The notes under the pieces are model-generated. The model saw only the letters and a program-made list of their open reading frames with translations, did not search any database and was not told where the DNA came from. A stretch of DNA of 62,267 bases from Muribaculaceae bacterium (GTDB lineage: Bacteria; Bacteroidota; Bacteroidia; Bacteroidales; G3-4614). Below are positions 3,432-61,815 of the stretch, in pieces. The stretch's first letter is position 1. Each line of letters opens with the position of its first letter. The stretch is from assembly GCA_017546805.1 (NCBI GenBank), contig JAFYRT010000015.1, forward strand, positions 1 to 62,267, in the 5' to 3' direction. Both the position numbers and the translations under genes were made by a program.

Positions 3432-3524
3432 TTGTTAGTTGCGTTCGCAAATTCGTTAATATAAAAAATACCAATTTGTCTAATTGGTCTTATTGGACTA
3501 ATTAGAATAATAAAAAAATATAAG

Positions 3525-4658
3525 ATGAAAAGAGAAGAAATTCCTTCACCCTCGTTTGTACTTGAAGAGGAGAAGTTTCGTAAAAACCTTGCACTCATTC
3601 GTTCGGTAAAAGAGCGAGCAGGAGTAGATATAATAATGGCATTCAAAGCATTTGCCCTTTGGAAAGTATTTGATGTGGTACGCGAATATATCCCTTATAC
3701 AACAGCAAGCTCGCTATCCGAAGCGCGTCTTGCATATGAGGAGATGAAGTCGTATGCACACACCTACGCACCAGTATATAGCAATGAGGAGTTTCCCGAA
3801 ATTCTCTCTTGCAGTAGCCATATAACATTTAACTCGCTAACCCAATACGAACATTTCCGTTCACAAATAGAGGTATCGGAGCGTCATATATCATGCGGTG
3901 TACGTATTAACCCTGAATATTCACAAGTCGAAACCGACCTTTACAACCCTTGTGCTCCCGGTTCACGTCTTGGAGTAACAGCTGATAAGATGAAACAGCT
4001 CCCCGAGGGTATCGAGGGATTGCATTGCCATACATTGTGTGAGTCCGACTCATATATGTTGGCAAACGTATTGGAGAAGGTTGAGGAGCGATTTGGACAT
4101 CTATTGCCTCAAATAAAGTGGTTGAATATGGGAGGAGGGCACTTAATGACTCGCGAGGGATATGATACTGAACACCTAATATTATTGCTTCAAAACTTCA
4201 AAGCAAAATACCCTAACTTGCAAATAATATTGGAGCCGGGCAGTGCCTTTGCTTGGCGAGCAGGATACCTAAAATCAACAATTCTTGACATTGTTGAGAA
4301 CCGAGGAATTCGTACCCTTATGCTAAACGTATCGTTTGCATGTCACATGCCCGACTGTTTGGAGATGCCTTACCGCCCCGAAGTGGTAGGAGCGCACGTC
4401 CCTCACGGTGGCGAAACAGTTTATCGTTTAGGTGGAAACTCTTGCCTTAGTGGCGACTTTGTAGGTGATTACGCCTTTGACAAGGAACCACAAATTGGCG
4501 ATACAATCATTCTGTGCGATATGATGCACTATACAACAGTTAAAACAACAATGTTCAACGGAGTGTCGCATCCATCAATCGTGTGGGAAGCCGAAGACGG
4601 AACAGCAACCATACTCCGCCAATTCGGTTACGAGGATTATAAAAATAGAATGAGTTGA
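3525..4658 (+). CDS. nspC: carboxynorspermidine decarboxylase
   Basis: AFKAF PLP lysine, LYNPCAPGSRLG, NMGGGH, HMPDCLEMPY, YTTVKTTMFNG. Confidence 0.92.
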   Translation: MKREEIPSPSFVLEEEKFRKNLALIRSVKERAGVDIIMAFKAFALWKVFDVVREYIPYTTASSLSEARLAYEEMKSYAHTYAPVYSNEEFPEILSCSSHITFNSLTQYEHFRSQIEVSERHISCGVRINPEYSQVETDLYNPCAPGSRLGVTADKMKQLPEGIEGLHCHTLCESDSYMLANVLEKVEERFGHLLPQIKWLNMGGGHLMTREGYDTEHLILLLQNFKAKYPNLQIILEPGSAFAWRAGYLKSTILDIVENRGIRTLMLNVSFACHMPDCLEMPYRPEVVGAHVPHGGETVYRLGGNSCLSGDFVGDYAFDKEPQIGDTIILCDMMHYTTVKTTMFNGVSHPSIVWEAEDGTATILRQFGYEDYKNRMS

Positions 4659-4950
4659 TTAATAGTTGTTAGTTTTTAGTTGTTAGTTGTCAGCAAACGA
4701 CTTTAATGACACTAAATACCTAATACAAGTAACACTCTCAGATAATAGATTGAACCTTTTGTTAAGCAAAAAAATATTAATACTTTTGCAATAACAAGAA
4801 TATACAAATTATGAATTAATTACTAATTACTAATTTCTAATTGTGGCTTTAGTCACGAACTAATTAATATAGATTGCCTATGAAACATTAGCGTATAGTT
4901 GATACGCACATCTTGAACATATTGGAAAAAGCGTTTTAGCTTTATTCTTT

Positions 4951-5099
4951 CTCTTGCGAAAGTTTGGCGACTTAAAGACAACCTGAAAGAATAACGATAA
5001 AATGCTCACGTTTATACGTGGGCTTTTAGTTATTTGCAGGTTAGGGTTACGCCAAACACCCCGCGAGAGCAGATATGCTAAAAGTTCCGCGTTTTTTTT
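4951..5099 (+). promoter_or_regulatory. structured leader / attenuator-like element, copy 1
   Basis: Nested pairings CTCTTGCG/CGCGAGAG, GTTTGGCG/CGCCAAAC, AACCTG/CAGGTT, AATAAC/GTTATT, GCTCACG/CGTGGGC, then a segment complementary to the tip followed by a T tract. Confidence 0.65.
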
Positions 5100-5159
5100 G
5101 TGTGCGCATTTGAACATTATATTTAAGGAACTATAGATAATAATATAACAACAATAATT

Positions 5160-5663
5160 ATGCAAAAAAAATACACGAAACACATTTTGATGATGTTGTT
5201 GGTATTCATACCATTTATAGGCATTAAAGCCACTGACTATATGAATGTCTATCTTACATCGCAAGGCTCATTTCAATCTATCAATATAGATGAAATAGAC
5301 AAAATCACCTTCCCCTCTGAAGATGAAGTAAACATCACCATATCGGGTATGGCAACCCCAATGGCAATAGATAATATCGAAGTCATCACCTTTGGCAATA
5401 CCAATATCACCGCCATAGAGGAGAGTGAAGCCAAAGTTGCCGAAATAGATATAACCTACTTAAAAGAAAGCGGTGAGATAAAAGTAACCACACCCGAGGC
5501 AATCAATCTTGTACACCTATACAATATGCAAGGAGTATTGATGCAAACACAAGCACCAAATACCACAGTTGCAACACTCAATGTAGGCGGCTGTCCAAGT
5601 GGAATATATATAGTAGCAGTACAATCAAACGGAAAAACAGAGATAAAGAAGATTATAAAATAG
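5160..5663 (+). CDS. small secreted protein with T9SS C-terminal sorting domain
   Basis: Signal peptide, two I-D-x-I-x-x-I-T-F repeats, C-terminal LYNMQG...GIYIVAV...KKIIK typical of type A CTD. Confidence 0.8.
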   Translation: MQKKYTKHILMMLLVFIPFIGIKATDYMNVYLTSQGSFQSINIDEIDKITFPSEDEVNITISGMATPMAIDNIEVITFGNTNITAIEESEAKVAEIDITYLKESGEIKVTTPEAINLVHLYNMQGVLMQTQAPNTTVATLNVGGCPSGIYIVAVQSNGKTEIKKIIK

Positions 5664-5750
5664 TTGAGGAACATTCGTTCCTCGAACCCGCTATCGTTCG
5701 GCATAATTTAATAAACTAAACTATGCTCTCACTTAATTGCGGCTTTGTTA
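5662..5750 (+). repeat. intergenic hairpin repeat family A
   Basis: AGTTGAGGAACATTCGTTCCTCGAACC is identical to 6667-6693 and is followed by the family core ...CGG-stem-AATAAA-stem-CTCTCRCTTA. Confidence 0.7.
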
Positions 5751-5871
5751 GTTTTTAGTTGTACGGTACTTCGTACCTTAGTTTTTAGCAAATAAAGACT
5801 CTAACAACTAACAACTACCCGCAGGGCGGCAGAGTTTTGCGATGCCGACAACAAACAACTCAAAAAAAAGA

Positions 5872-6645
5872 ATGATGAAAACAAGACTAATCACATTGCT
5901 AATAGCAATAACAACTATAATAGGTAGTGCTTATGCACAAAAGAAAATAGAAGTATATAAAAATGGAGAAGTAGTATATAGTGAATATATTACAGATATA
6001 GATAGTATAAAATTTAAAGAGCAAACAGCGCCTCTGCCCAATACCGAAAACGGACACGAATATGTTGATCTTGGATTGCCTTCAGGAATTAAATGGGCAA
6101 CCTGTAATGTGGGAGCAAATTCACCCGAGGAGTATGGCGATTACTTTGCATGGGGCGAAACCGAGCCAAAAGATTATTATTCTTGGAGTACCTACAAATA
6201 TTGTAATGGTTCATATGATACAATAACCAAATATTGTACAAATTCAAAATATGGCACAGTAGATAATAAAACAACCCTTGAACTCTCAGACGATGCTGCT
6301 CGTGTAAATTGGGGAGGCAGTTGGCGCATGCCAACAAGAGCAGAACAAGATGAATTAGAAAATACCTCAAATTGTACATGGATATGGACCACACAAAACG
6401 GAGTAAAAGGATATAAGGTAACAAGCGTAAAGAACGGTAACTCCATATTTCTTCCTGCGGCGGGCCTTCTCGGCGGCGACGATCTCGACGTTGCAGGCGA
6501 CCTCGGCCGCTTCTGGTTGAATTCGCTCGACCCGACCCCGAACCGCTGCTACAACGCCTCCAACATGGCCTTCAATTCGTTCAACGCGTCCGGGACCTAC
6601 GAATACCGTTACTACAGGCGGTCTGTCCGCGCAGTCTGCGAGTAG
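5872..6645 (+). CDS. exported protein with C-terminal CLec-fold (DUF1566/Fib_succ_major-like) domain; putative DGR target 1
   Basis: Start probably at MMKTR (ORF track starts at 5842); signal peptide; HEYVDLGLPSGIKWATCNVGA...GDYFAWGE...WRMPT...IFLPAAG...SVRAVCE; GC-rich 3' end. Confidence 0.85.
   Translation: MMKTRLITLLIAITTIIGSAYAQKKIEVYKNGEVVYSEYITDIDSIKFKEQTAPLPNTENGHEYVDLGLPSGIKWATCNVGANSPEEYGDYFAWGETEPKDYYSWSTYKYCNGSYDTITKYCTNSKYGTVDNKTTLELSDDAARVNWGGSWRMPTRAEQDELENTSNCTWIWTTQNGVKGYKVTSVKNGNSIFLPAAGLLGGDDLDVAGDLGRFWLNSLDPTPNRCYNASNMAFNSFNASGTYEYRYYRRSVRAVCE
6466..6645 (+). other. DGR variable region VR1 with IMH-like 3' end
   Basis: Abrupt GC-rich shift, NNC/NNT codons, and differences from the paralog at 61428-61601 concentrated in codon positions 1-2. 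Confidence 0.8.
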
Positions 6646-6666
6646 AAATTAAACATGTTTAATTTC

Positions 6667-6757
6667 AGTTGAGGAACATTCGTTCCTCGAACCTGCTCAT
6701 GCTCGGTAGTGCTTAAATAAATTTATCATTACTCTCGCTTATTCGCAGATTTGTTAG
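6667..6757 (+). repeat. intergenic hairpin repeat family A
   Basis: Homologous to 5662-5750 and 38825-38885; preceded by a perfect 22-bp palindrome at 6645-6666. Confidence 0.7.
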
Positions 6758-6890
6758 TTGAACGAGGGTGATTCTTTTGATACTTTTGTGTCATACTTAT
6801 TAGCCTAAATGCTCTAATAAGACCTAATGACTCAATTGACCTTATAATCCTGATTGTCTTCTTAAAAGATAATTTTATATGATAATACAC

Positions 6891-6924
6891 AAAAAACCAT
6901 TGCTTTTTATGGCAATGGTTTTTT
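6891..6924. terminator. bidirectional intrinsic terminator between target 1 and recA
   Basis: AAAAAACCATTGC-loop-GCAATGGTTTTTT. Confidence 0.75.
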
Positions 6925-6987
6925 CATAACTACCAATAAAAATTTATATAATTCGCTATTAACTATATTAATAAGCCTATCTTTGTT

Positions 6988-7047
6988 GATTTTGCTCTCG
7001 CCAACAATGCACAAATAAATGCATTGTATTCGCTTAATCACAAAATT
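6988..7047 (+). repeat. degenerate family A repeat
   Basis: GCTCTCGC..CAATGC-ACAAATAAAT-GCATTG..TTCGCTTAATCACAAAATT aligns to 38825-38885. Confidence 0.55.
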
Positions 7048-7073
7048 CCTAATTTCTAATTCCTCATTCCTAA

Positions 7074-8093
7074 TTATTTTTTTATCGCCTCCATAATCAA
7101 ACCTTCCAACTCCTCTGCAAGTTCGGGATTATCCATAACCATACGTTTTGCAGCGTCGCGTCCTTGACCAAGTTTAGTGTCGCCGTAAGCAAACCAAGAA
7201 CCGCTTTTCTTAATAATACCATACTCAACACCAAGGTCAATTATCTCTCCCGATTTAGAGATACCTTCGCCAAACATAATGTCGAACTCTGCTTTGCGGA
7301 ATGGGGGAGCAACTTTGTTCTTAACAATTTTAACACGAGTTTGGTTACCAATAACATCCTCGCCATCTTTAATTTGAGATACTCTGCGAATGTCTATACG
7401 AACTGAAGAGTAGAACTTCAATGCGTTACCACCTGTTGTAGTTTCGGGGTTACCGAACATAACACCAATTTTTTCGCGCAATTGGTTGATGAATATACAA
7501 GTTGTGTTTGTTTTGCTGATTGTTGAAGTAAGTTTACGCAAAGCCTGGCTCATCAAGCGAGCTTGCAAACCTACGCGGTTGTCGCCCATATCACCCTCCA
7601 ACTCTGCTTTAGGAGTAAGAGCCGCAACAGAGTCAATAACAACAATGTCAACTGCCGACGATCTGATTAGTTGGTCGGCAATCTCCAATGCTTGCTCTCC
7701 ACTGTCGGGCTGAGAAATCCAAAGATTTTCAACGTCAACACCAAGTTTTTCGGCATAGAAACGGTCGAATGCATGCTCAGCGTCAATGATTGCTGCAATA
7801 CCACCATTTTTTTGAGCTTCGGCAATGGCGTGGATGGCCAATGTTGTTTTACCTGATGATTCGGGACCATATATTTCAATAACTCTTCCTCTTGGATAAC
7901 CTCCAACGCCAAGTGCGGCGTTGAGAGCAATTGAACCTGTTGATATAACGGCAACCTCTTCAACCATATCGTCGCCAAGTTTCATGATAGAACCTTTTCC
8001 GTAGCTTTTCTCAATTTTGTCCATTGCTGCTCTAAGAGCTTTAAGTTTATCCTCAGAGACTGTAACTTTTACTTTTTTCTCTTCGCTTTCCAT
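7074..8093 (-). CDS. recA: recombinase RecA
   Basis: [40 protein letters not shown]. Confidence 0.99.
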
Positions 8094-8219: not shown

Positions 8220-8340
8220 AATTAGAAATGAGGTATTAGTACGTTGCTTAAGCAATAATTAGTTCGCGACTTTGTCGCAATTAGAAATTAATTGATAATA
8301 AAAAAATCATTCCTAATTTCTAATTCCTAATTCCTAATTT
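8220..8340. repeat. AATTAGG/AATTAGA heptamer repeat cluster with small hairpin
   Basis: Inverted arrays aattagaaat... and ...ttcctaatttctaattcctaatt around GCGACTTTGTCGC. Confidence 0.6.
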
Positions 8341-10925: not shown

Positions 10926-13142
10926 ATGCAAAGTCAAGAATTGATGTTCTCGGCAGAGGAAAAGATAGAATTTTTACACTCATATTTAGAGTTGCGACGT
11001 CAGACCCGTTCACTTATAAATGAAAGTGAATTTGAGAAACTACGTCATATCATCTCCGAAGCTACGGCAAAAGACCAATATGGACGAGATCGCAACGGAA
11101 ACAGCATATTGTTGCGAAATTTCAATACGGCACTTATCCTCTCAAAAGAGGTTGGCTTGGATCGTTCCACGCTTCTTTCTATTTTGCTATACAATGTTGT
11201 GGCCCACAAAAGTCGTACTATTGAATATATCGAAAAGGAGTTTGGATGCGACGTGGCCGCTATAATATCGCACCTTATAAAAACCGAGAGCCTATATTCA
11301 AAACATGCAACTGTTCAAAGCGATAACTTCAGAAAATTACTTTTGTCGTTTGCCAACGATGCGAGGGTGATAATAATACTTATTGCCGATAACCTATGTT
11401 TGATGCGAATGATAAACCATCACCCCGACAATAACTATCGATTAAGCATTGCAAGCGAAGCATCATACCTATATGCCCCATTGGCACACCGTTTGGGATT
11501 GTATAAGATAAAATCAGAACTTGAAGACCTCTCGTTGAAATATACAAATCGCGAGGTGTTCTCCTCAATTGCATCAAAACTTACTCAAACAAAAGAGAAG
11601 CGTCAAAAATATATAGAGTCGTTTATATCGCCCATAAGAGAAAAGCTTATAAAAGAGGGGTATAAATTTGAGATGAAAGGTAGAACAAAATCTATCTACT
11701 CGATATACAACAAGATGAAAAAGCAAAAGGCCGAGTTTGAAGATATTTATGACCTTTTTGCTATCAGAATAATTTTGGATACTCCATTGGAGCGAGAAAA
11801 ATCGGATTGCTGGAGAATATTCTCTATTATAGCCGACATGTATAAACCCAATCCCTCACGAATGCGCGATTGGTTAACCATACCTAAAAGCAACGGATAT
11901 GAATCGTTACACATAACAGTGTGGGGGCCTGAAGACCGTTGGGTAGAGGTGCAGATTCGCACCAAACGCATGGACGAGATTGCGGAGAATGGCTTGGCCG
12001 CGCATTGGCGATATAAAGGAGTTAAGAGCGAAAGCGGATTGGACGATTGGCTAAACAGTATGCGCGACATATTGGAATCGTCTGATGACAAAGATGCTCT
12101 TGAACTTGTGAAAGACTTTAGTAAGGATGATTACGATAAAGAGGTATTTGTCTTCTCTCCCAAAGGCGATTTGTATAAACTAACCAAAGGAGCTACAGTT
12201 TTGGACTTTGCTTACCTTGTTCACACAAACATTGGAAACAAGTGTGTGGGGGCAAAGGTTGACGAGAAAAATCAATCGTTGAGATACCAAATAAAGAGTG
12301 GTGATACTATTGAAATTTTGACATCACCACAACAAAAACCAAAACAAGATTGGTTGAATATAGCAACACAAACACGCACAAAACAGAAGATACGTCAGGC
12401 ACTGAAAGAGGCGGAGAATCGTGAAGCCGAGTATGGAAAAGAGATGTTCTTCCGTCGCTTGAAAAACAAAAAAATAGAACTTGATGAGGCTGCCTTAACA
12501 CAACTGATAAAGAAATCGGGATTTAAGACAGCAACAAAATTCTTCTCAACCGTTGCGCAGGATAAGATAGACATAAACTCTACGATAGATAAGTTTGTGC
12601 AGATAAGTCGTGAAAACGATGAGGATAACATCCATCAACGTTCGGCAGAAAATTTTGTTCCGCAGACACCTGTTCAGCAACAAACAAAAGAGGATGTGTT
12701 GGTGATTGATGGCTCGTTGAAGGATATAGAGTATAAACTGTCTAAGTGTTGCAACCCTATATATGGCGATGAGATATTTGGATTTGTAAACTCGCAGGGA
12801 GGAATAAAAATACATAGAATGGATTGTCCTAATGCCGCTGATTTGCGAGGACGCTTTGGCTATCGAGTAGTCCCTGCAAAATGGTCTGGCAAGCATGGCT
12901 CTCAATATGTGGTTGTATTACGTGTTGTAGGAAACGATGATATAGGAATTGTTACAAACATAACATCAATAATATCGAAAGAGAGTGGGGTGGCGATGCG
13001 AAGCATATCAATCGATTCAAATGATGGACTGTTTCAGGGCCACATAACCGTGATGGTAAACCATGTGCCGGCGCTGAATGCTTTGATAAAGAAATTGAAA
13101 ACTGTAAAAGGAGTCAAAAACGTAGAGAGAACAACAGAATAA
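10926..13142 (+). CDS. relA: RelA/SpoT family (p)ppGpp synthetase with TGS and ACT domains
   Basis: APLAHRLG, GRTKSIYSI, PKSNGYESLH, EVQIRT, AAHWRYK; HD motif replaced by YN. Confidence 0.9.
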   Translation: MQSQELMFSAEEKIEFLHSYLELRRQTRSLINESEFEKLRHIISEATAKDQYGRDRNGNSILLRNFNTALILSKEVGLDRSTLLSILLYNVVAHKSRTIEYIEKEFGCDVAAIISHLIKTESLYSKHATVQSDNFRKLLLSFANDARVIIILIADNLCLMRMINHHPDNNYRLSIASEASYLYAPLAHRLGLYKIKSELEDLSLKYTNREVFSSIASKLTQTKEKRQKYIESFISPIREKLIKEGYKFEMKGRTKSIYSIYNKMKKQKAEFEDIYDLFAIRIILDTPLEREKSDCWRIFSIIADMYKPNPSRMRDWLTIPKSNGYESLHITVWGPEDRWVEVQIRTKRMDEIAENGLAAHWRYKGVKSESGLDDWLNSMRDILESSDDKDALELVKDFSKDDYDKEVFVFSPKGDLYKLTKGATVLDFAYLVHTNIGNKCVGAKVDEKNQSLRYQIKSGDTIEILTSPQQKPKQDWLNIATQTRTKQKIRQALKEAENREAEYGKEMFFRRLKNKKIELDEAALTQLIKKSGFKTATKFFSTVAQDKIDINSTIDKFVQISRENDEDNIHQRSAENFVPQTPVQQQTKEDVLVIDGSLKDIEYKLSKCCNPIYGDEIFGFVNSQGGIKIHRMDCPNAADLRGRFGYRVVPAKWSGKHGSQYVVVLRVVGNDDIGIVTNITSIISKESGVAMRSISIDSNDGLFQGHITVMVNHVPALNALIKKLKTVKGVKNVERTTE

Positions 13143-13143
13143 G

Positions 13144-13185
13144 AGTTGTTAGTTGTTAGTTGTTAGTTTGTTAGTTGTTAGTTAG
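13144..13185. repeat. AGTTGTT heptamer tandem repeat
   Basis: agttgtt repeated about 5 times directly after the relA stop. Confidence 0.8.
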
Positions 13186-41513: not shown

Positions 41514-41745
41514 TATCTTATTTGCTATTAAAAACTAATGCGAAGATACTACTTTTTTTTGAGAGACGAAAGCCTCTTTTTATATATAAAGATGAGCTAT
41601 TGAGAATTATTCAATAAAAAAGAGTATAAAACTTTTTGCCAAGTAAAAAATTTTGAGTACCTTTGCGTGCCATTACGAGAGAACTATATATGCACGCCAC
41701 CAACGTGCTACTAATTTCGGAAACAATTAAAAATACAATATAACA

Positions 41746-42003
41746 ATGAAAAAAGGACTTCACCCCGAAAATTACCGCGAGGTTGTTTTCAAAGATATGT
41801 CGAACGAGGAGATCTTCATCACACGTTCAACAGTAGCAACAAAAGAGACAATTGAGGTTGATGGTGTAACTTATCCTTTGGTAAAACTTGAGATTACCAA
41901 TACTTCACACCCATTCTTCACAGGTAAACAAAAACTTGTCGATACAGCAGGTCGCGTAGACAAGTTCATGAGCCGTTACGCAAAATTTGCGAAGAAGAAA
42001 TAA
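41746..42003 (+). CDS. rpmE2: 50S ribosomal protein L31 type B
   Basis: [25 protein letters not shown]; -7 promoter element at 41658-41665. Confidence 0.97.
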
Positions 42004-42020
42004 TTGTTATAAACAATATA

Positions 42021-42055
42021 AAGAGAGCCTCGCTTAATAGCAAGGCTCTCTTTTT
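42021..42055 (+). terminator. rpmE2 terminator
   Basis: AAGAGAGCCT-loop-AGGCTCTCTTTTT. Confidence 0.8.
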
Positions 42056-42077
42056 GTTTGTATGCCTTTATTATAAA

Positions 42078-42186
42078 AGGCAATCTACGTTGTTATTATC
42101 AATATTCTACCTCAGTCACGTACTTTTGTGTACGCTCCTTTCGATCTAAATCTCAAAGCCTTGTATCTTACAAATTCTAACAACCC
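42078..42186 (+). repeat. structured intergenic repeat family B
   Basis: CTCAGTCACGTAC-loop-GTACGCTCCTTTCG...GCCTTGTA; reverse-complement homolog at 57634-57745. Confidence 0.65.
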
Positions 42187-42392
42187 TTATCAACGCACAT
42201 ATATAATTAGCAATCTGCTTTGGGGACAATAAAAAATTAGACCAATTAGTCAATTGGGCATTATAAGGATGCGAACCAAAAATCACCTTTTAGCCCTTCT
42301 CTTGGGCGTAGGAGATTAATTGCTAAATTTATAATCTATTAGAAGTTTGTTATATATTTTAGAAAGAAAGGAATACAATAAGAAAAAATATT

Positions 42393-42400
42393 TATCTTTG
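42393..42400 (+). promoter_or_regulatory. -7 promoter element upstream of leader copy 2
   Basis: TATCTTTG. Confidence 0.55.
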
Positions 42401-42456
42401 TAATGGTGAATTGAAATAATTCATCAATTTTTGAGAAATAGTAGCGTTATGCTCTC

Positions 42457-42608
42457 TTGTTAATGAAAACCTAGGAAATTTTCAAAAGTACAAAGAAGGC
42501 ATGATGGTTTCACGTGTATTCACGTGGACTGTTATATCCATATTTGTACTTTGGGTTTTCCTAGGACCTTCATTAGCAATGTGGAATAAATAGTCCACGT
42601 TTCTTTTT
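42457..42608 (+). promoter_or_regulatory. structured leader / attenuator-like element, copy 2
   Basis: TTGTTAATGAA/TTCATTAGCAA, CCTAGGAAA/TTTCCTAGG, AAAGTACAAA/TTTGTACTTT, TCACG/CGTGG; terminator ATGTGGA/TCCACGT plus T tract. Confidence 0.7.
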
Positions 42609-42647
42609 ATAAATTTTTCAGTTTTTAATTTCTAAAAATTATTTATT

Positions 42648-45233
42648 ATGGCAAGAGAAAATGTGCCTATAAAAGTAGGAATCCTTGATTTATTAGGTGG
42701 TGTTAATGGTGCACAATTTGTAATACCTGCATATCAAAGGAATTATACATGGACGGCAAAGAAAGAAGTTCATCAATTGCTTTATGATTTATTGGCAGTG
42801 TTGACCAAAGAACGTTCTAAACATTTTGTTGGAATAATGATTTATCTTGAAAAATCAATTACTCCGTTTCATTGGGAACGTTCTGTTATTGATGGACAGC
42901 AGCGTTTAACAACTATCTTTTTAACTCTATATGCGGTAAAGGAATTAATGATTGAAAAGGGGATAGCTTTAGATGCAGAAAAGTTAGAGAATCAATATTT
43001 GATAAATCCTTATGATGAGGTTAGTAAATTTAAACTGAAACCCTTGGTCTCTGACGATGAAGTATATCAGCATATAGTAAAAAGAGATTTTGTTAACATA
43101 AAAAATAGGAATTCTAATGTATATAAGAATTTTATCTATATAAAAGACGTGTTAAGAGATGTTTCAGAGAAATATTCTTTTAATGATATTCTTAGAGCTT
43201 TAAATAATTTGTATATAGTATGTGTTCCGATAGGAGAGGATGATTATCCTCAAAAAATATTTGAGAGTATTAATGCTACAGGAATAAAGCTTACAGCTTC
43301 AGATCTTATTCGTAATTTCCTTTTGATGCCTATTGTTAGCGATAAGCAAGATGAATATTACGAAAAATATTGGAAGCAAATTGAAGAACTTGTTGATTAT
43401 GATGCAAAAAAATTAGAAGCATTCTTTCGCTTTTTTATAATGGCAAAAAAAAGAAGTCTTGTTAATAAAAATGCAGTTTATCAACAATTTACAAAATGGT
43501 ATGATGAATATATTATAAATGTTGATATAGAAGACGTCTTTATTGAAATAGTAAATTATGCTAAGTGCTATAATTATTTATATAAAGCTCCGATAGATAA
43601 ACTAGACAAAGATTTAAGAGAATCCATTTTTGAGTTTAGACTTAACTTATCTGATATGCCAGCTCCATTATTAATGGAATTGTATTCAATACATTTATAC
43701 CATTGTGATAACAATGAAAATGAGTTGTCTGCAAAACAATTGTCAGAAATTATTACAATTTTGAATTCATATTTGATGCGTCGCTCTTTGTGTGGTATGG
43801 ATACTAGTGATATATCAAATTATTTCCCTGAATTATTAAGAAGTTTGCTAAATTTCTGCAATGCAGATTATTCTGACATTGTTGAAACTTTTAAACGTTT
43901 CTTGGTAGATAATAATCGCTCTAATGCAAGAGAAATGCCAGATGATAAACGCTTAGTAGAGCGAATAAAGCATGCGAATATGTATAGGTTAAGACAGTGG
44001 GTGAATATATTTTTTCGTAAGTTAGAATCAGATGGAAATCCTGCTCCAGTAGATTTTTCCGCTTTGAGTATTGAGCATTTAATGCCTCAGACACCAACTA
44101 AGTTATGGATGGTAAGCTTGGAGTGTGATGAAGATTCTTATGAGTCAAATGTTAATAGATTAGGGAATTTAACATTAGCTGCGAAATCTGATAATAGTAG
44201 GATGAGTAATAATGTTTGGGAGTATAAGAATAAAATTCTTGCATCAACAAACCATCTAAAGATGAATTCAACTCTATTAGCATGTGATAGATGGAAATTA
44301 GAAAATATAGAGAATAGAACAGATGAACTAATAAAAGAAATTGCTCGTTTGTATCCGTATTACAGCAGTAAGGCAGGTTTTAAAACTTTTCCGTCAAAGA
44401 AAATAGATAGACTCAAAATTTTTATAGAAGATTATGGAATTAAGGCCTCGGCATATTACTATCCTGAGACAGATGCGGTTGAAGTTAAAGCTGGATCTAT
44501 ATTGAGAAATGTAAATGAAGAAGATGATTTTGCAAAACTTTTATCTCCTTTTAGGGAAATGTTACTAAAAAATGGGAGACTCCATAAGGAAAATGATAAG
44601 TTGGTGTTTGCTCAAAATTATCTTTTTGAAAAAGAAGGCTTGGGAATGTCTGCGACTATAATACTCTCTGAATATATTAAGGATCCTGAAATTATTTGGC
44701 ATTTGGCAAATGGATCAACATTGAAAGAATGGAAAGATGCTAGGAGTAATGAATCAATCGAAACTGTTGAAGAAAATTTTGCAGAAAGTGATAGTATAGA
44801 TATTATTTTAAATCATAAGGTAGGAAGTAGATTATTGTTGCAAACGAAAAAAGTTGATTGGTCTTTAATGACAAGTTCTATAACATTATCGAATGAATGT
44901 AGAGAAAAAATTCAAAGTAATGGTGATTGGCGAATGAAAATAAATGAGCGGCGTAACGTGAAAATAATAATAAATGATGAATATTTTGATTCATATATGC
45001 ACTATTATAATTATGATGGTCGTCCTAATCCTGTAATGCAAATAAGATACCCTGGTAGAAAAAGTTTAATTGTTAGTAGGCTTAAAGATATATGCTCTGA
45101 AAAGTATTATGATTTGGAACAAAAACGCTTAAGCGAGGAAAATGGAATAATATATAAAGAGACATCAGGAGATAGATATGTCCATATTTATATGACGGAA
45201 AAACCAAATGTGATTAGGTTTGTTTTTAAGTAA
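42648..45233 (+). CDS. GmrSD-like type IV restriction protein (DUF262 + DUF1524 HNH) with extra C-terminal domains
   Basis: IPAYQRNYTW, IDGQQRLTT, FESINATG, SIEHLMPQ, LGNLTL...N; AT-rich. Confidence 0.85.
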   Translation: MARENVPIKVGILDLLGGVNGAQFVIPAYQRNYTWTAKKEVHQLLYDLLAVLTKERSKHFVGIMIYLEKSITPFHWERSVIDGQQRLTTIFLTLYAVKELMIEKGIALDAEKLENQYLINPYDEVSKFKLKPLVSDDEVYQHIVKRDFVNIKNRNSNVYKNFIYIKDVLRDVSEKYSFNDILRALNNLYIVCVPIGEDDYPQKIFESINATGIKLTASDLIRNFLLMPIVSDKQDEYYEKYWKQIEELVDYDAKKLEAFFRFFIMAKKRSLVNKNAVYQQFTKWYDEYIINVDIEDVFIEIVNYAKCYNYLYKAPIDKLDKDLRESIFEFRLNLSDMPAPLLMELYSIHLYHCDNNENELSAKQLSEIITILNSYLMRRSLCGMDTSDISNYFPELLRSLLNFCNADYSDIVETFKRFLVDNNRSNAREMPDDKRLVERIKHANMYRLRQWVNIFFRKLESDGNPAPVDFSALSIEHLMPQTPTKLWMVSLECDEDSYESNVNRLGNLTLAAKSDNSRMSNNVWEYKNKILASTNHLKMNSTLLACDRWKLENIENRTDELIKEIARLYPYYSSKAGFKTFPSKKIDRLKIFIEDYGIKASAYYYPETDAVEVKAGSILRNVNEEDDFAKLLSPFREMLLKNGRLHKENDKLVFAQNYLFEKEGLGMSATIILSEYIKDPEIIWHLANGSTLKEWKDARSNESIETVEENFAESDSIDIILNHKVGSRLLLQTKKVDWSLMTSSITLSNECREKIQSNGDWRMKINERRNVKIIINDEYFDSYMHYYNYDGRPNPVMQIRYPGRKSLIVSRLKDICSEKYYDLEQKRLSEENGIIYKETSGDRYVHIYMTEKPNVIRFVFK

Positions 45234-45266
45234 TTTTTTCAGAAAATTACCATTAATCGATTATAC

Positions 45267-45304
45267 AAATAGCCCCAAAGTTTGTAAAAGCTTTGGGGCT
45301 ATTT
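45267..45304. terminator. bidirectional terminator
   Basis: AAATAGCCCCAAAG-loop-CTTTGGGGCTATTT. Confidence 0.8.
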
Positions 45305-45319
45305 CTTGGGGATAGGAGA

Positions 45320-47908
45320 TTAATTTCTAATAATCAGTTCGTCGTTCTGAGCATCTATGGTAATTGGTTTGCTTCTATCAACCTTTTGAGCAAGAAGTTC
45401 TTTAGAAAGGTGGTTAAGTACGTCGCGGTGAATAACTCTCTTAACAGGTCTTGCGCCAAATTGAGGATCGTAACCCTCGTGGGCGATATATTTAACAGCC
45501 TCGGGGGTAAAGTTAAGGGTAATGCCGTTTTGCGCCAATAGTTTTTTAACTCCGTTCAATTGAATCGAAACAATCTCTCCAATTTCCTCTTCGTTAAGAG
45601 GAGCAAACATTATAATATCATCAATACGATTTAGAAACTCAGGACGAACACTCTGTTTCAATAACTCCATCACTTCGTTTTTGCTCTTTTCGATAATCTC
45701 CTCTTTGTTTGTTGAGTTTAGCTTCTCAAAGTTTTCGCGAATAAGAGAAGAACCGATGTTCGATGTCATTATAATAATGGTATTTTTAAAGTTTACCAAG
45801 CGTCCTTTGTTGTCAGTTAAACGACCATCGTCAAGTACTTGGAGCAATGTGTTGAACACATCTGGGTGAGCCTTCTCAATTTCGTCGAAAAGCACAACCG
45901 AGTAGGGTTTTCTTCTAATGGCTTCGGTAAGTTGACCTCCTTCGTCATAACCAACATATCCTGGAGGAGAACCAATGAGACGAGTAACGCTGAATTTCTC
46001 TTGATACTCGCTCATGTCAATACGAGTCATCATATTTTCGTCGTCAAACAGATACTCGGCAAGAGCCTTTGCAAGTTCGGTTTTACCCACACCTGTAGTT
46101 CCTAAAAATATAAATGAACCTATCGGACGTTTGGGGTCGCTCAAACCAGCTCTACTGCGTCTTACAGCATCCGAAACCGCAGTAATGGCCTCCTCTTGAC
46201 CAACCACTCTGTTGTGTAGCTCCTCCTCAAGGTTCAGGAGTTTCTCTCGTTCGCTTTGCAACATCTTAGTGACAGGAATACCCGTCCAGCGAGATACAAC
46301 ATCTGCAATATCATCAGCGGTGACCTCCTCTTTAATCATTGCATCATCGCCTTGCAATGTTTTAAGACGTTCCTGAGTCTCTTTAATTTCATTCTCTTTA
46401 GCAACAATTTTTGCATATCTTATCTCTGCAACCTTGCCATAATCACCCTCACGTTCGGCCTTTTCAGCCTCGTATTTAAGATGCTCAATATCAATTTTGT
46501 TTTGCTGTATCTTGTTAACCAACTCTTTTTCCGAGTTCCATTTTGCGCTATAACGCATCTCCTCCTCTTTAAGATTTGCGATAGAACGGTTAAGTTCCTC
46601 TAATTTCGCTTTATCGTTTTCGCGTTTAATAGCCTCTCGTTCAATTTCAAGTTGCTTAATCTTACGGCTTGTTTCATCAAGTTCTTCAGGAACAGAGTCC
46701 ACCTCCAAACGAAGTTTAGCGGCAGCCTCGTCCATAAGGTCAATGGCTTTGTCGGGTAAGAAGCGGTCTGTGATATATCGTGATGATAGTTGTACGGCAG
46801 CAATAATAGCCTCGTCTTTAATCCTTACTTTATGGTGATTCTCATATCTCTCTTTCAAGCCTCTTAAAATTGAGATTGTATTTGCCTCATCTGGTTCATC
46901 AACCATGACAATTTGGAAACGACGCTCGAGAGCCTTGTCTTTCTCAAAATATTTTTGGTATTCGTCAAGAGTGGTGGCACCTATCGAACGAAGCTCGCCA
47001 CGAGCCAAAGCAGGTTTCAGAATATTTGCTGCATCCATTGCGCCCTCTCCTTTACCTGCACCAACAAGAGTGTGAATCTCATCTATAAACAAAATTATCT
47101 CTCCTTCGGCATGTATAACCTCGTTTACAACAGCTTTAAGACGCTCCTCAAATTCACCTTTGTATTTTGCTCCTGCAACAAGGGCTCCCATATCCAACGA
47201 GAAAATCTCTTTTCTCTTAAGGTTCTCGGGAACATCGCCTCTTACAATTCTATGAGCAAGTCCCTCGGCAATAGCCGTTTTACCGGTACCGGGTTCTCCA
47301 ATAAGAATAGGATTGTTTTTAGTTCTACGGCTTAATATTTGAAGTACTCTACGAATCTCATCATCTCTACCAATAACGGGGTCTAACTTGCCATCTCTTG
47401 CACGTTCGTTAAGATTAATGGCATATTTCGATAGCGCATTATACGTCTCCTCTGCACTTGCATCATTAACCTTTTTGCCTTTTCTAAGTTCATCAATGGC
47501 ACTTCCAAGTCCCTTTTCGGTAATGCCTGCGTCTTTCAAAAACTGACTGACTCTGTTTTTTACCATTACCAAAGACATAATGATGCTTTCCAAAGCAACA
47601 AATTGGTCTCCACATTTTTTAGAATACTCCTCGGCTTTGGTTAAAACCTCATTACATTCACGGCTTAAATAAGGTTCTCCGCCATTGACTTTTGGTAAAG
47701 TATTAATCTCTCTATCTACTAAATTTGTCAATAACGAGACATTTGCTCCCAATTTGTTAAAAAGGAATTCGGCAACAGAGCCTTCAATCCCCATAACGCC
47801 TTTGAGCAAGTGAAGTGTCTCGATAGACTGATTGTTGTTTCTGTTAGCAATCTCAACGGCCTTTTGAATAGCCTCTTGCGATTTAATTGTAAAGTTGTTC
47901 ATATTCAT
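45320..47908 (-). CDS. clpB: ATP-dependent chaperone ClpB
   Basis: Two AAA modules ([16 protein letters not shown]) and coiled-coil middle domain. Confidence 0.97.
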
Positions 47909-51670: not shown

Positions 51671-51756
51671 TTAATTAGGAATTAGTGTGGTGCTTCGCAC
51701 CGATTAGAAATTAGGAATGTTTTTAATTTCTAATTCATAATTCCTAACTCCTAATT
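51671..51756. repeat. AATTAGG heptamer inverted arrays with GGTGCTTCGCACC hairpin
   Basis: Direct reading; lies between convergent genes. Confidence 0.65.
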
Positions 51757-57591: not shown

Positions 57592-57630
57592 GGAGGCTGT
57601 GTCAAAATGCAAATTTTGATATCAGCCTCT
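57592..57630 (+). terminator. hairpin downstream of OMP gene
   Basis: GAGGCTG-TGTCAAAAT/ATTTTGATA-CAGCCTC. Confidence 0.55.
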
Positions 57631-57633
57631 TAA

Positions 57634-57745
57634 GATTTGTAAGAATTGATAAAATACAAGGCGTTTAAATTTAGGGCGAAAGGAGTGTACTTATGTACAT
57701 GACTGAGCCCTAATATTGAAAACAACACAGTAGTTTGTCAATTAT
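57634..57745 (-). repeat. structured intergenic repeat family B
   Basis: Reverse complement aligns with 42078-42186. Confidence 0.65.
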
Positions 57746-57988
57746 GACACATCGCCTTGTTTCTATAATTTTTGTAAAAAATATTTCACTGTAAATCAAT
57801 CTTTTAATTTTCGAAATAAAATAGAATGTTGTACTATTAAAAAAAAATGTTCAATTTTGTATAAATAAAGTTCTAATATTAAAGTATATAAGAAAAATAG
57901 CAAACAAAGAGTATACAAGAAAATAAAACAATATAAAAACACTAAAATAACTATTTGTTAAATAAAGCATTAGCTAACTATTCGGTAT

Positions 57989-58137
57989 CATCCTAAAACC
58001 TGAGAAATTTTAGAAAAAACAATACCTCGAATAAGTCGGTAAAATGCTCACGTATCTATACGTGGGCTTGGCTTATCCGGTATTGTGGGCAATCTCAGGG
58101 CCTAAGGATGTGGATAATGTCAAGTCCACATTTTTTT
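57989..58137 (+). promoter_or_regulatory. structured leader / attenuator-like element, copy 3
   Basis: CATCCT/AGGATG, CCTGAGA/TCTCAGG, ACAATACC/GGTATTGT, GCTCACGTA/TACGTGGGC; terminator ATGTGGA/TCCACAT plus T tract. Confidence 0.7.
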
Positions 58138-58190
58138 GTCCTAAGTAACCCATAATAGAGTAGGAGAGTCAATGCAAAAACACGTAAGAT

Positions 58191-58403
58191 ATGGAGCAAA
58201 TACACATTGGCTCAATAATTCGTTGCGAGTTACGCAAACAGAATAGGAGTAATCGCTGGTTGGCAGATCAAATTGGGGTGATACCACGCACCATAAACAA
58301 AATATTCTTGAAGCAAGATATGGATACGACACAACTCTTTCGTATCTCGAAAGCGATGCAAGTTGATTTCTTTTCATATTACTCAAAAGAGTTAAAAAAA
58401 TAA
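58191..58403 (+). CDS. small XRE-family helix-turn-helix protein
   Basis: IHIGSII...WLADQIG...INKIF...ISKAMQVDFF. Confidence 0.8.
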   Translation: MEQIHIGSIIRCELRKQNRSNRWLADQIGVIPRTINKIFLKQDMDTTQLFRISKAMQVDFFSYYSKELKK

Positions 58404-59174: not shown

Positions 59175-61601
59175 ATGAAACACAAACACTTATTAAAAAG
59201 CATACTGTCAGTAATGCTGATAACATTAACTACAGTAATATCAATATTTATAACCTCATGTGCCGAGGAGGAAGAAAACAAATCAAATACAACCCCATCT
59301 GTGTGCAAAGTCTCAGTAATTAGCGGAGAGGGCGGAACAGCAAAAACATCTGAAACAGAATTAATACCCGGTTGGGAGGTAACCATAACCGCAACACCCG
59401 AAGAGACCTACCGTTTTGTAAACTGGACAGTAGGCGGGAAAGAGGTATCAAAAGAAAACCCATATACAATAGCGATAAACCAAAATACACAATTTAAAGC
59501 CAATTTTGAGAAAGATAACTACACCCTCAAAGTAACCGCGGGCGAGGGAGGTGTTGTAAAAGCATCACAAGAGGGCATTGTGTTAAACGGAACAAAAGTC
59601 ACTCTTACTGCTACTCCAAAAGAAGGCTATGGTTTTGTAAATTGGACAGTAAACGGAGAAGAGGTATCAAAAGAAAACCCCTACACAGTAACAATAACAA
59701 ACGACATAGAGTATGTCGCCAACTTCATAACCCATAAAGTAACCGTAATAGCAGGTGAAGGCGGTACAGCCGAAACATCAAAAACACAAGCAGGACATAA
59801 CGAACAAGTAACCCTTACAGCCACTCCCAATGATGGCTACAGCTTTGTCAATTGGACAGTAAACGGAGAAGAAGTATCAAAAGAAAACCCCTACACAGTA
59901 ACCGTAACAAAAGATGTAGAGTATATTGCTAACTTCATAACCCATAAAGTAACTGTAATAGCAGGTGAAGGTGGTACAGCCACAGTCTCAAAAACACAAG
60001 CAGGACATAATGAACAAGTCACTCTTACTGCTACTCCCAACGAAGGCTATAGTTTTGTAAATTGGACAGTAAACGGCGAGGAGGTATCTACATCTGCAAC
60101 ATACACAGTAACCGTAACAAAAGATGTAGAGTATGTCGCTAATTTTATCAGTTATAAAGTAACAGTATTGTCAGGCGAAGGTGGAACAGCCACAGCAAAT
60201 AAAACACAAGTAGGATATAACGGGCAAGTCACCCTCACTGCCACACCCAACGACGGTTATGGTTTTGTTAATTGGACAGTCAACGGAGAGGAAGTATCAA
60301 CCGCGAACCCATATACAGCGACAATAACAGCAAATACAGAGTTTAAAGCCAACTTTATCAGTTATAAAGTATCTGTAATAACAGGTGAGGGCGGAACGGC
60401 TACGGCAAATAAAACACAAGTATCCCCTAACGGACAAGTAACCCTCACCGCCATGCCAAAAGAAGGCTATAGCTTTGTCAATTGGATAGTGGACGGAGTT
60501 GAGGTTTCAAGACAAGCAACATACACCGCAACAATAACAGCAGATACAGAATTTAAAGCCAATTTTATCAGTTATAAAGTAACAGTATTGTCAGGCGAAG
60601 GCGGAACTGCTACAGCAAATAAAGCACAAGTAGGCTATAACGAACAAGTGACCCTCACCGCTACCCCTAACGATGGCTATAGCTTTGTCAATTGGACAGT
60701 AAACGGCGAGGAAGTATCAACATCTGCAACATATACCGCAACAATAACAGCAGATACAGAATTTAAAGCCAACTTTATTAGTTATAAAGTAACCGTAGTA
60801 TCAGGCGAAGGCGGAACCGCCAAAGTGGATAAAACGCAATTAGCACATAACGGACAAGTAACCCTCACCGCCACACCTGAAGAAGATTACTTCTTTGTCA
60901 ATTGGACAGTAAACGGAGAGGAGATATCAACATCTGCAACATATACCGCAACAATAACAGCAGATACAGAATTTAAAGCTAATTTTAGAGAAACATATAA
61001 ACCTACAGGATTAGAAAATGGAAAAGGTTTTGTAGAACTCGGTTTGCCAAGTGGACTAAAATGGGCAACATGCAATGTGGGAGCAACCACACCCGAAGGT
61101 TACGGCGATTACTTTGCTTGGGGCGAGACAGAACCAAAAGACTACTACGATTGGAGCACCTACAAATATTGTAATGGTTCTTCATCAACAATGACCAAAT
61201 ACTATACAAAATCAAGTTATGGCACAGTAGATAATAAAACCACCCTTGAACTCGCGGACGATGCCGCGCATGTAAATTGGGGAGGTAATTGGCGAATGCC
61301 AACAATTGAAGAACAAAAAGAGTTATTGAATAATTGCACTTGGACATGGACAACACAAAACGGAGTAAACGGGTGTAAAGTAACAAGTAAAAGGAACGGT
61401 AACTCCATTTTTCTTCCTGCTGCGGGCTATCGCTACGGCGACAATCTCGACAGTGCGGGCAGTTACGGCTACTACTGGTCGGGTTCGCTCGGCACGTACT
61501 ACAGCGACTACGCTTACCTCGTGTACTTCAGTTCGGACAGCGTAGGTTGGGAGTCCTACGACCGTTGCAGCGGGCAGTCTGTCCGCGCAGTATGCGAGTA
61601 G
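59175..61601 (+). CDS. surface lipoprotein: 8 InlB-B-like repeats plus C-terminal CLec-fold domain; putative DGR target 2
   Basis: Lipobox ITSC then acidic stretch; VTLTATP..GY.FVNWT repeats; C-terminal domain paralogous to 5872-6645. Confidence 0.88.
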   Translation: MKHKHLLKSILSVMLITLTTVISIFITSCAEEEENKSNTTPSVCKVSVISGEGGTAKTSETELIPGWEVTITATPEETYRFVNWTVGGKEVSKENPYTIAINQNTQFKANFEKDNYTLKVTAGEGGVVKASQEGIVLNGTKVTLTATPKEGYGFVNWTVNGEEVSKENPYTVTITNDIEYVANFITHKVTVIAGEGGTAETSKTQAGHNEQVTLTATPNDGYSFVNWTVNGEEVSKENPYTVTVTKDVEYIANFITHKVTVIAGEGGTATVSKTQAGHNEQVTLTATPNEGYSFVNWTVNGEEVSTSATYTVTVTKDVEYVANFISYKVTVLSGEGGTATANKTQVGYNGQVTLTATPNDGYGFVNWTVNGEEVSTANPYTATITANTEFKANFISYKVSVITGEGGTATANKTQVSPNGQVTLTAMPKEGYSFVNWIVDGVEVSRQATYTATITADTEFKANFISYKVTVLSGEGGTATANKAQVGYNEQVTLTATPNDGYSFVNWTVNGEEVSTSATYTATITADTEFKANFISYKVTVVSGEGGTAKVDKTQLAHNGQVTLTATPEEDYFFVNWTVNGEEISTSATYTATITADTEFKANFRETYKPTGLENGKGFVELGLPSGLKWATCNVGATTPEGYGDYFAWGETEPKDYYDWSTYKYCNGSSSTMTKYYTKSSYGTVDNKTTLELADDAAHVNWGGNWRMPTIEEQKELLNNCTWTWTTQNGVNGCKVTSKRNGNSIFLPAAGYRYGDNLDSAGSYGYYWSGSLGTYYSDYAYLVYFSSDSVGWESYDRCSGQSVRAVCE
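59300..60990 (+). repeat. intragenic tandem repeat, eight ~210-bp units
   Basis: Exact 210-nt period at 59731, 59941, 60151, 60361, 60571, 60781. Confidence 0.92.
61428..61601 (+). other. DGR variable region VR2 with IMH-like 3' end
   Basis: GC-rich, TAC/GAC/AGC/GGC codons, shared tail GTCTGTCCGCGCAGTmTGCGAGTAG. Confidence 0.8.
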
Positions 61602-61651
61602 TGTGCTTCGCTACAATTAGAAATTAGGAATGAGGAATTATGCGGGTAAGT

Positions 61652-61800
61652 GAGAGCAAAACAAGTTTACTTGAATTTTGCCGAACGTGAGCATAATCAA
61701 GAAACGCATGTTTCTTAATTAGAGATTAAGAGAGAGCAAAACAAGTTTACTTGAATTTTGCCGAACGTGAGCATAATCAAGAAACGTATGTTTCTTAATT
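61652..61800 (-). repeat. two tandem copies (69 bp, 80-bp period, 1 mismatch) containing a family A repeat in reverse orientation
   Basis: 61652-61720 versus 61732-61800. Confidence 0.85.
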
Positions 61801-61815
61801 GCAGATTTGTTAGAA

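Follow-up and report, generated by a model that had tools for sequence, protein, structure and literature searches.

Dispersed intergenic palindromes of 100–200 nucleotides (nt) that fold as RNA hairpins are known from enterobacteria (ERIC/IRU) and Neisseria (Correia), where they can carry promoters or alter messenger RNA (mRNA) stability. In Bacteroides, the leaders of capsule operons are read by the NusG-like UpxY antiterminators, while the tetQ leader of CTnDOT acts by translational attenuation with a leader peptide of three amino acids (aa). According to PMC11697453, FopS/GibS of Bacteroides thetaiotaomicron is a multicopy RNA family with canonical sigma-ABfr promoters, and the FopS RNAs are 65–70 nt long, contain a single-stranded seed and a terminator, and have been deposited in Rfam. 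The locus described here lies in a 62,267-nt stretch of a Muribaculaceae genome (contig JAFYRT010000015.1, hereafter the window), where positions 42393–42647 precede the gene of a GmrSD-type nuclease and are, to judge from sequence comparison, a complete copy, promoter included, of a conserved multicopy leader module of Bacteroidales. The main result is that Bacteroidales possess a widespread, portable leader RNA, which also serves defence and resistance cargo. It resembles ERIC/IRU and Correia in being a dispersed transcribed palindrome, but differs from them in that its orientation is fixed to the downstream gene and its copies are highly diverged, with compensatory changes and an excess of G-U pairs.

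A sequence-only reading of the window had described a −7 element at 42393, an untranslated region of about 240 nt containing a conserved rod, and a terminator ending about 40 nt before the ATG of a GmrSD-like gene, this leader being the second and clearest of the rod copies in the window. The architecture of promoter, long structured leader, hairpin with T-run and gene was recovered as it had been described, in the plus-strand order −7 box, 5′ hairpin, rod, T-run, spacer and ATG. The features of the leader are the following, where the bit score is that of a covariance model of the rod comprising 179 positions and 59 pairs:

42393..42400, plus strand: −7 promoter box TATCTTTG of the Bacteroidota TAnnTTTG type, read in the sequence
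42406..42424, plus strand: 5′ leader hairpin of 8 pairs with a 3-nt loop at the inferred transcript start, predicted by folding
42434..42609, plus strand: rod-shaped leader RNA of about 175 nt with a closing helix, internal loops, an apical hairpin and a T-run end (151.8 bits, E 2.2e-40; covariation; G-U excess)
42444..42452, plus strand: GCGTTATGC, unchanged among the closest homologues and forming the 5′ side of the basal helices (alignments and consensus fold)
42509..42528, plus strand: apical hairpin of the rod, CACGTG...CACGTG (folds; helix 9 in the covariation analysis, with 98.5% of cells paired)
42578..42608, plus strand: terminator-like local hairpin with a GUGGA/UCCAC core, followed by TTTCTTTTT (scan and folds)
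42610..42647, plus strand: A/T-rich spacer of 38 nt before the start codon, without the downstream partner segment found in most family members

The box TATCTTTG is in register in all five close homologues aligned, as are GCGTTATGC, the arms of the rod and the end formed by CACG and a T-run, and a −7 box is located about 40–50 nt upstream of the rod in each of the 15 copies of the closest subfamily. TAnnTTTG occurs 103 times in the window against 80.1 ± 8.5 expected, so that a single box taken alone is weak evidence, and a scan for the sigma-70 consensus, which is irrelevant for Bacteroidota, gave 23 sites where 21.1 were expected. On the plus strand, TAnnTTTG occurs between rpmE and the GmrSD ATG only at 42121 and 42393, with no further −7 box between 42400 and the ATG at 42648. 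We infer a transcript start near 42406, which would leave about 242 nt to the ATG, in agreement with the length of the untranslated region given by the earlier reading. As the 38-nt spacer has no room for a Bacteroidota promoter and the boxes lie only at 42121 and 42393, GmrSD is predicted to be transcribed through the rod.

Folding of positions 42400–42660 gave −76.6 kcal/mol, compared with −46.2 ± 4.4 kcal/mol for 200 shuffled sequences (z = −6.85), none of which folded as well. In the consensus fold, the A-rich 5′ end pairs with the U-rich 3′ end and the whole RNA forms one rod of 68 pairs, 17 of which show compensatory changes, while the 5′ hairpin is kept in the consensus fold of five homologues, with both-side changes in three pairs; the family consensus of the apical hairpin is CUCACGC-loop-GCGUGGG. 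The terminator-like hairpin (42578–42601) contains 8 pairs, 3 of them G-C, and a loop of 8 nt, and together with TTTCTTTTT at 42600–42608 it forms an element ending 40 nt before the GmrSD ATG, the U-run of the window copy being intact (UUUCUUUUUAUAAAUUUUU). This local hairpin has CACG in common with the closing helix of the rod, and the two forms are nearly isoenergetic (−60.2 kcal/mol with the closing helix enforced against a minimum free energy of −62.5), both structures preceding the U-run. The region 41700–45400 contains 6 terminator-like sites, compared with 1.4 ± 1.0 in shuffled sequences.

Among 70 distinct copies, 90.8% of the alignment cells are in standard pairs, against 42.6–49.0% when the partners are slid by one to three columns; changes on both sides are found in 53 of the 59 pairs, the covariation score is 0.562 against 0.06–0.10 for slid partners, and none of 500 shuffles matched any observed covariation measure. 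The G-U and U-G cells outnumber the A-C and C-A cells 3.6-fold (380 versus 106), and the reverse strand of the window copy scores 25.4 bits versus 151.8 (25–33 bits across the loci tested), so that selection acts on the RNA transcribed from the gene strand rather than on a palindrome in the DNA. A bulge of the 3′ arm (CAGUUCCCAC) pairs, in most copies, with a segment 15–40 nt past the U-run, and this pairing covaries (GUUCC/GGAAC, GUGCC/GGUAC, GUCCC/GGGAC and AACCC/GGGUU), the cognate duplexes having a mean of −11.8 kcal/mol against −9.9 kcal/mol for non-cognate ones; neither the window copy nor its GmrSD-linked homologue has it. In 30 of 69 copies (e.g. at loci L072, L035 and L029), the rod is preceded at 15–30 nt by the motif GAC(A/T)TA (2.3% of control windows), often within ATGACATAA, which can be read as a mini open reading frame (ORF) of two codons; the motif is absent from the window copy. 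A mini-ORF consisting of ATG, one to three codons and a stop, with GAC(A/T)TA as the conserved core, precedes 24 of the 69 copies (8.9% of control windows), but neither the window copy nor most copies of the closest subfamily.

With filters off, the covariance model finds three plus-strand copies in the window, at 42434–42609 (151.8 bits), 4921–5101 (61.0 bits) and 57960–58140 (30.3 bits), so that the leader of GmrSD is indeed the highest-scoring one. The two others are:

4921..5101, plus strand: family copy 1 (61.0 bits; nhmmer 7.3e-18), 58 nt upstream of a 167-aa protein (5160–5663) with a type IX secretion system (T9SS) C-terminal sorting domain (Pfam PF18962)
57957..58140, plus strand: family copy 3 (30.3 bits; nhmmer 3.6e-13), 50 nt upstream of a 70-aa ORF (58191–58403)

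The genome itself (2.1 Mb, 38% G+C, with the window as its contig C19) contains 11 rod copies on 9 contigs according to an nhmmer profile of the aligned copies, while a blastn search of it revealed no second copy, the further ones being seen only by structure or profile searches. In four other genomes, blastn detected an element of about 200 nt with 70–75% identity in unrelated gene contexts. The related genomes searched fall into a single large order with very many families. The covariance model matches in 32 of 101 related genomes (own genome included) and in 9 of 11 of the same genus, and the copies per single genome reach 5, 10, 12, 14 and 17 among these related genomes, whereas an even sample of the phylum gave matches in only 6 of 150 other genomes, all from the same class. 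An exact-pattern scan of GTDB followed by the model confirmed 18 of 80 fetched loci, including metagenome-assembled genomes (MAGs) of Bacteroidales, Lentimicrobiaceae and Dysgonamonadaceae, Sunxiuqinia indica, a Lutibacter MAG and Flagellimonas meridianipacifica; the named homologous loci are all from Bacteroidales or other Bacteroidia. When plasmids and phages were searched with blastn, copies turned up in two virome contigs and five plasmid records, i.e. Bacteroides uniformis pBUN1, a Parabacteroides distasonis plasmid, two records of Phocaeicola massiliensis and a 1.77-Mb replicon of Prevotella sp. oral taxon 299, and the model scored 141–159 bits at five fetched loci (four plasmid records and one virome contig). 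Many copies are situated near contig ends in fragmented assemblies. The rod family is widespread in gut Bacteroidales and apparently undescribed.

In 56 of the 64 copies with enough flank, the rod is followed within 150 nt by the start of a co-oriented ORF of 60 aa or more, compared with 37% at random positions, and the gap between rod and gene is usually 38–96 nt (overall range about 30–100 nt). TAnnTTTG is found within 120 nt upstream of 49 of 69 copies (11.7% of control windows), and in 59 of 69 the 9 nt that follow the basal CACG include 6 T or more. A crude test, positive for 42% of all ORFs, assigned signal peptides to 41 of 56 downstream products, among them leucine-rich repeat (LRR)/BspA-like surface proteins, lipoproteins and T9SS cargo. 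Further products encoded downstream are a radical-SAM/SPASM enzyme, an OmpA-like protein, the product of a small ORF and GmrSD. On named replicons, blaMUN-1, DarT with its NADAR-like partner, and TerB-like and BatD-like proteins follow the leader. In pBUN1 (L275, 3001–4132), the rod directly follows mobV and is itself followed by blaMUN-1 44 nt downstream, and in the P. distasonis plasmid (L277, 2995–5145) a leader of the same subfamily precedes a DarT-domain protein with the NADAR-like partner. Both plasmids have the order toprim gene, last gene and leader, the last gene being annotated as the MobV relaxase in pBUN1 and as hypothetical in the P. distasonis plasmid. Mob genes are absent from the surroundings of most copies. 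As the same leader stands before diverse accessory genes, the module is general and not special to defence. The suggestion of the sequence-only reading that this is a control of phage defence is thus not supported as a specific one, the same family preceding LRR proteins, lipoproteins, T9SS cargo, the radical-SAM/SPASM enzyme, the OmpA-like protein, the beta-lactamase and the DarT–NADAR pair.

The downstream gene, called GmrSD-like by the earlier reading, agrees with that assignment, as PF03235 (1.1e-29, 104.5 bits) and PF07510 (8e-21, 74.8 bits) both match above their cut-offs, and the PADLOC models Orf5 (6.1e-99), HEC-06, SspE and type IV restriction endonuclease (mREase_IV) match as well. 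By its domains, it is classed as a GmrSD type IV restriction enzyme with an N-terminal GmrSD_N and a C-terminal GmrSD_C, and carries an extra C-terminal region of about 290 aa. Its translation contains DGQQR and IEHLMPQ, which we take to be the catalytic motifs. The gene is flanked by rpmE (41746–42003, plus strand) and clpB (45320–47908, minus strand), and its surroundings comprise:

42648..45233, plus strand: GmrSD-type (DUF262 + DUF1524) nuclease gene encoding 861 aa, from domain matches
42327..45331, plus strand: islet of 3005 bp with promoter, leader, GmrSD, terminator and a replacement 3′ end of clpB, from comparison with empty sites
42287..42326, no strand assigned: left direct repeat of 40 nt, formed by the ancestral rpmE–clpB spacer and, from the ancestral clpB, its final four codons plus stop
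45291..45330, no strand assigned: right direct repeat of 40 nt inside the islet, giving the present clpB stop (45320–45322, minus strand) and last codons
45271..45300, no strand assigned: G+C-rich hairpin between the convergent GmrSD and clpB, read in the sequence

Compared with the empty sites in two genomes of the same genus (G001 and G008), the islet is inserted 12 nt before the ancestral clpB stop, and rpmE and clpB are adjacent, about 100–220 nt apart, in seven same-genus genomes. Because the islet brings a replacement clpB 3′ end, its ends form an imperfect 40-nt direct repeat (pair D13, 78% identical). It contains only the promoter, leader, GmrSD and hairpin, with no integrase inside. 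The window GmrSD was found in none of 11 same-genus genomes, and its best relative elsewhere among the related genomes is 33% identical; GmrSD in this 3-kb islet is regarded as horizontally acquired. A metagenome contig (L235) encodes a GmrSD of 67% identity with a leader of the same family (124.6 bits) 36 nt upstream, in which the −7 box is aligned and two helices show compensatory changes, while the sequence upstream of the promoter is unrelated. Promoter, leader and GmrSD have thus stayed linked as a unit over 33% divergence of the protein. No rod was found with four other metagenome relatives of GmrSD (4 of 5 at 45–60% identity), with 34 of 34 more distant ones, or at seven loci of relatives (at most 33% identity) in the related genomes. 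On the same metagenome contig, a second and weaker rod (3322–3497, 26.3 bits) starts 10 nt past the GmrSD stop, which suggests tandem leader–gene units.

Another block of the window, 4663–7069, with copy 1 and a pair of paralogous genes for secreted proteins, is lacking in G001, whose decarboxylase gene and recA are only 102 nt apart, and is rearranged in G008 with a break at 5165 (the ORF start). The gene family concerned is represented by dozens of paralogous pieces in each genome of the genus.

As for the mode of action, transcription would start near 42406 from a sigma-A type promoter with the −7 box, and either the rod base or the local hairpin with the GUGGA/UCCAC core would, together with the U-run, stop part of the polymerases, the stopped transcripts leaving a stable RNA of about 200 nt. 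GmrSD would be made only from the read-through fraction, with the leader setting a low or adjustable nuclease level, and the module would travel with accessory or cargo genes, here driving GmrSD. That the leader gives limited, possibly regulated read-through is given a probability of about 0.5. Limited read-through of any kind is marginally better than an even bet, and termination at the T-run is plausible, whereas modulation by a factor acting on the conserved loops, i.e. true antitermination as the earlier reading proposed for a nuclease off by default, is doubtful. The broadest version regards the rod as a conditional terminator or leader that represents a new class of portable riboregulator. 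It would be carried along with the cargo of Bacteroidales mobile elements and islets, comprising defence genes (GmrSD and DarT–NADAR), beta-lactam resistance and surface proteins, and would gate their expression on one common cellular signal through a protein or RNA binding its conserved internal loops. This version is speculative and of about the same low probability.

The layout of an intrinsic-terminator attenuator is present at the locus, with a stable hairpin and a U-run between promoter and gene, the base of the rod pairing with the U-run. Metatranscriptome contigs of 165–223 nt from two libraries of one study contain homologous rods of other copies or organisms and end near the A-rich start and in the U-run; as assembled contigs cannot show RNA ends, they give a weak hint of a discrete RNA. 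In RNA library X1, contigs evenly cover the islet and bridge the junction of rod and GmrSD, but this library is probably DNA and uninformative on read-through; libraries X2, X3 and X7 gave no GmrSD coverage, the organism being probably absent from them, and are equally uninformative in this respect.

Several observations weigh against limited read-through. In the closest subfamily, the U-runs are often broken by G or C (e.g. CUUCGUGUUA and CUUCUGUGUA), and such copies look like poor intrinsic terminators, so that efficient termination does not hold throughout the family. The U-run is needed to pair with the A-rich 5′ strand, so that its conservation alone does not prove termination, and no conserved antiterminator alternative was found. 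The pairing between the 3′-arm bulge and the downstream segment is only possible in a read-through RNA, which points to a function of the full-length mRNA. In addition, 20 of the 69 copies have no −7 box within 120 nt, and the alignment used for covariation was fitted to the model, which favours structure; the covariation conclusion is nevertheless safe, as the effect is large and many pair types occur per column.

A constitutive 5′ untranslated region is possible though clearly less probable than limited read-through. Here the module would be no switch and hardly a terminator, but a portable promoter with a structured 5′ end that stabilises, processes (e.g. by RNase III) or insulates the cargo mRNA, with read-through as the rule and the short RNA as a by-product, and it would fit the many interrupted U-runs of the closest subfamily, the covarying pairing past the U-run, the 5′ hairpin at the inferred transcript start and the very diverse genes served, including cargo of mobilisable replicons directly after mobV. 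However, other subfamilies hold perfect runs of U7–8, the requirement of at least 6 T of 9 is satisfied by 59 of 69 copies, the window copy has a good U-run, and 175 nt with several conserved internal loops would be unneeded for a simple stabiliser; the metatranscriptome contigs of about rod length also speak against it, as weak evidence. The combination of own promoter, 5′ hairpin, rod and U-run is also the anatomy of a small RNA (sRNA) gene, and a trans-acting multicopy sRNA, standing upstream of genes only through co-mobilisation and binding a protein or target RNAs through its loops and the GCGUUAUGC strand, with GmrSD expressed by leakage, would be in line with the many copies per genome and the short RNA-library contigs with homologous rods. 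Multicopy sRNA families are known in Bacteroides, e.g. FopS (PMC11697453). Such a gene is improbable here, given the co-oriented ORF within 150 nt in 56 of 64 copies, the leader–GmrSD pair kept at 67% protein identity, a spacer too short for a separate promoter, and the conserved seed-like strand being base-paired in the consensus fold.

Least probable, and very unlikely, is an element acting at the DNA level, such as a palindromic repeat or miniature inverted-repeat transposable element (MITE), an attC-like cassette site or an oriT, of which the RNA structure would be a by-product. The rod is palindromic over its full length with its reverse strand also scoring 25–33 bits, the leader–gene units vary by presence and absence (the clpB islet, and 4663–7069 missing in G001), copies follow mobV or toprim genes on two replicons, and many copies are near contig ends in fragmented assemblies. 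Nonetheless, the 3.6-fold excess of G-U over A-C lies on the gene strand, the rod keeps one orientation relative to the gene that follows, most copies lack a neighbouring Mob gene, and variable regions break outside the rod, 107 nt upstream of it in the case of the clpB islet and, in G008, at position 5165, where the ORF starts. As the copies of the genome are too diverged for blastn, there has been no recent transposition burst. A MITE or palindromic repeat was accordingly rejected on the lack of a second copy by blastn, the co-orientation in 56 of 64 copies and the G-U excess, with no terminal repeats or target duplications of the rod seen, although target duplications were not examined in detail. 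An integron attC or cassette site was rejected on the spread of copies over 9 contigs and the break-points outside the rod, no integrase search having been made, and the oriT reading was considered and judged unlikely.

Other repeats occur around the islet and elsewhere in the window. A MITE-like repeat of about 165 nt is present at 57593–57758 and, in reverse orientation, at 42073–42189, the latter falling in the gap that separates rpmE from the islet and the former standing some 200 nt upstream of leader copy 3, and at least 8 more copies with 91–99% identity are located on other contigs, with several in same-genus genomes. Short heptamer arrays resembling TAATTNC or AACTAAC (families D5, D6 and D14; 4657–4688, 4807–4842, 7045–7075, 8309–8339, 13137–13168 and 51726–51756) occur at the ends of genes and on the margins of variable blocks, and the right repeat of the GmrSD islet holds a heptamer-like TTAATTTCTAAT. 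Eight tandem repeats of 210 nt (59374–60986) lie inside the gene of an 808-aa surface protein with InlB-B repeats (59175–61601), and two of 80 nt (61647–61806) just past it.

Should the family prove to be what it seems, one conserved structured RNA module of gut and rumen Bacteroidales expresses many horizontally acquired genes, among them phage-defence systems, a toxin–antitoxin pair, an extended-spectrum beta-lactamase and dozens of surface proteins, and would provide a handle on how foreign cargo genes in Bacteroidota are turned on or held low. To our knowledge, Bacteroidota lack Shine–Dalgarno-driven translation, Hfq and ProQ. The module would also be a large, covariation-supported addition to the short list of regulatory RNAs of this phylum, and its copies in cultivable strains of Bacteroides, Phocaeicola, Parabacteroides and Prevotella make the question directly testable.

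In comparison with known RNAs, Rfam 15 gave no match at gathering score in the window, and a scan of 41900–42900 at E ≤ 10 matched the leader only with mir-460 (17.2 bits against a gathering score of 52); no Rfam 15 family matched the element in 10 diverse members (E ≤ 0.1) or in 5 loci from named hosts (E ≤ 1). Full-text literature searches revealed no description of the rod family, while supplementary sRNA lists may hold copies under BTnc-type names, and no such family is described in the available parts of PMC9723704, bioRxiv 10.1101/2023.11.10.566511 and the review PMC13750123. The kind of element, a promoter-proximal structured leader with a terminator, is known, while the family is absent from Rfam 15 and from the literature searched. 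Identity with FopS/GibS was ruled out by size and shape, the rod being about 175–200 nt long and without an Rfam match.

Like the capsule and tetQ leaders, the module is a long Bacteroidales leader that would decide the expression of accessory or mobile-element genes, but UpxY/UpxZ genes do not follow the rod, and tetQ-type translational attenuation was rejected since only 24 of 69 copies have a mini-ORF and the window copy has none. The rod resembles 6S RNA and the Bacteroidales-1 RNA in its length of about 180 nt, its paired 5′ and 3′ ends, its internal loops, its own Bacteroidota promoter and its terminator, and differs from them in being multicopy and nearly always in front of a gene. The Bacteroidales-1 RNA (RF01693) is found at C2:33614–33790 (142.4 bits) as the single copy of the genome above cut-off and is likely its 6S-like RNA; as RF01693 occurs only there, RF00013 has no match, the rod model gives at best 10.7 bits on that locus and the rod has 11 copies, identity of the two was rejected. 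Like attenuators and riboswitch leaders, including the 5′-UTR-derived sRNAs of Bacteroides, the module consists of a promoter, a long structured leader and a hairpin with a U-run before a gene, and a short terminated RNA may accumulate; unlike them, it has no ligand-type junction or conserved antiterminator that could be found, its terminator is the base of a 175-nt rod, and it is present in multiple copies before diverse genes.

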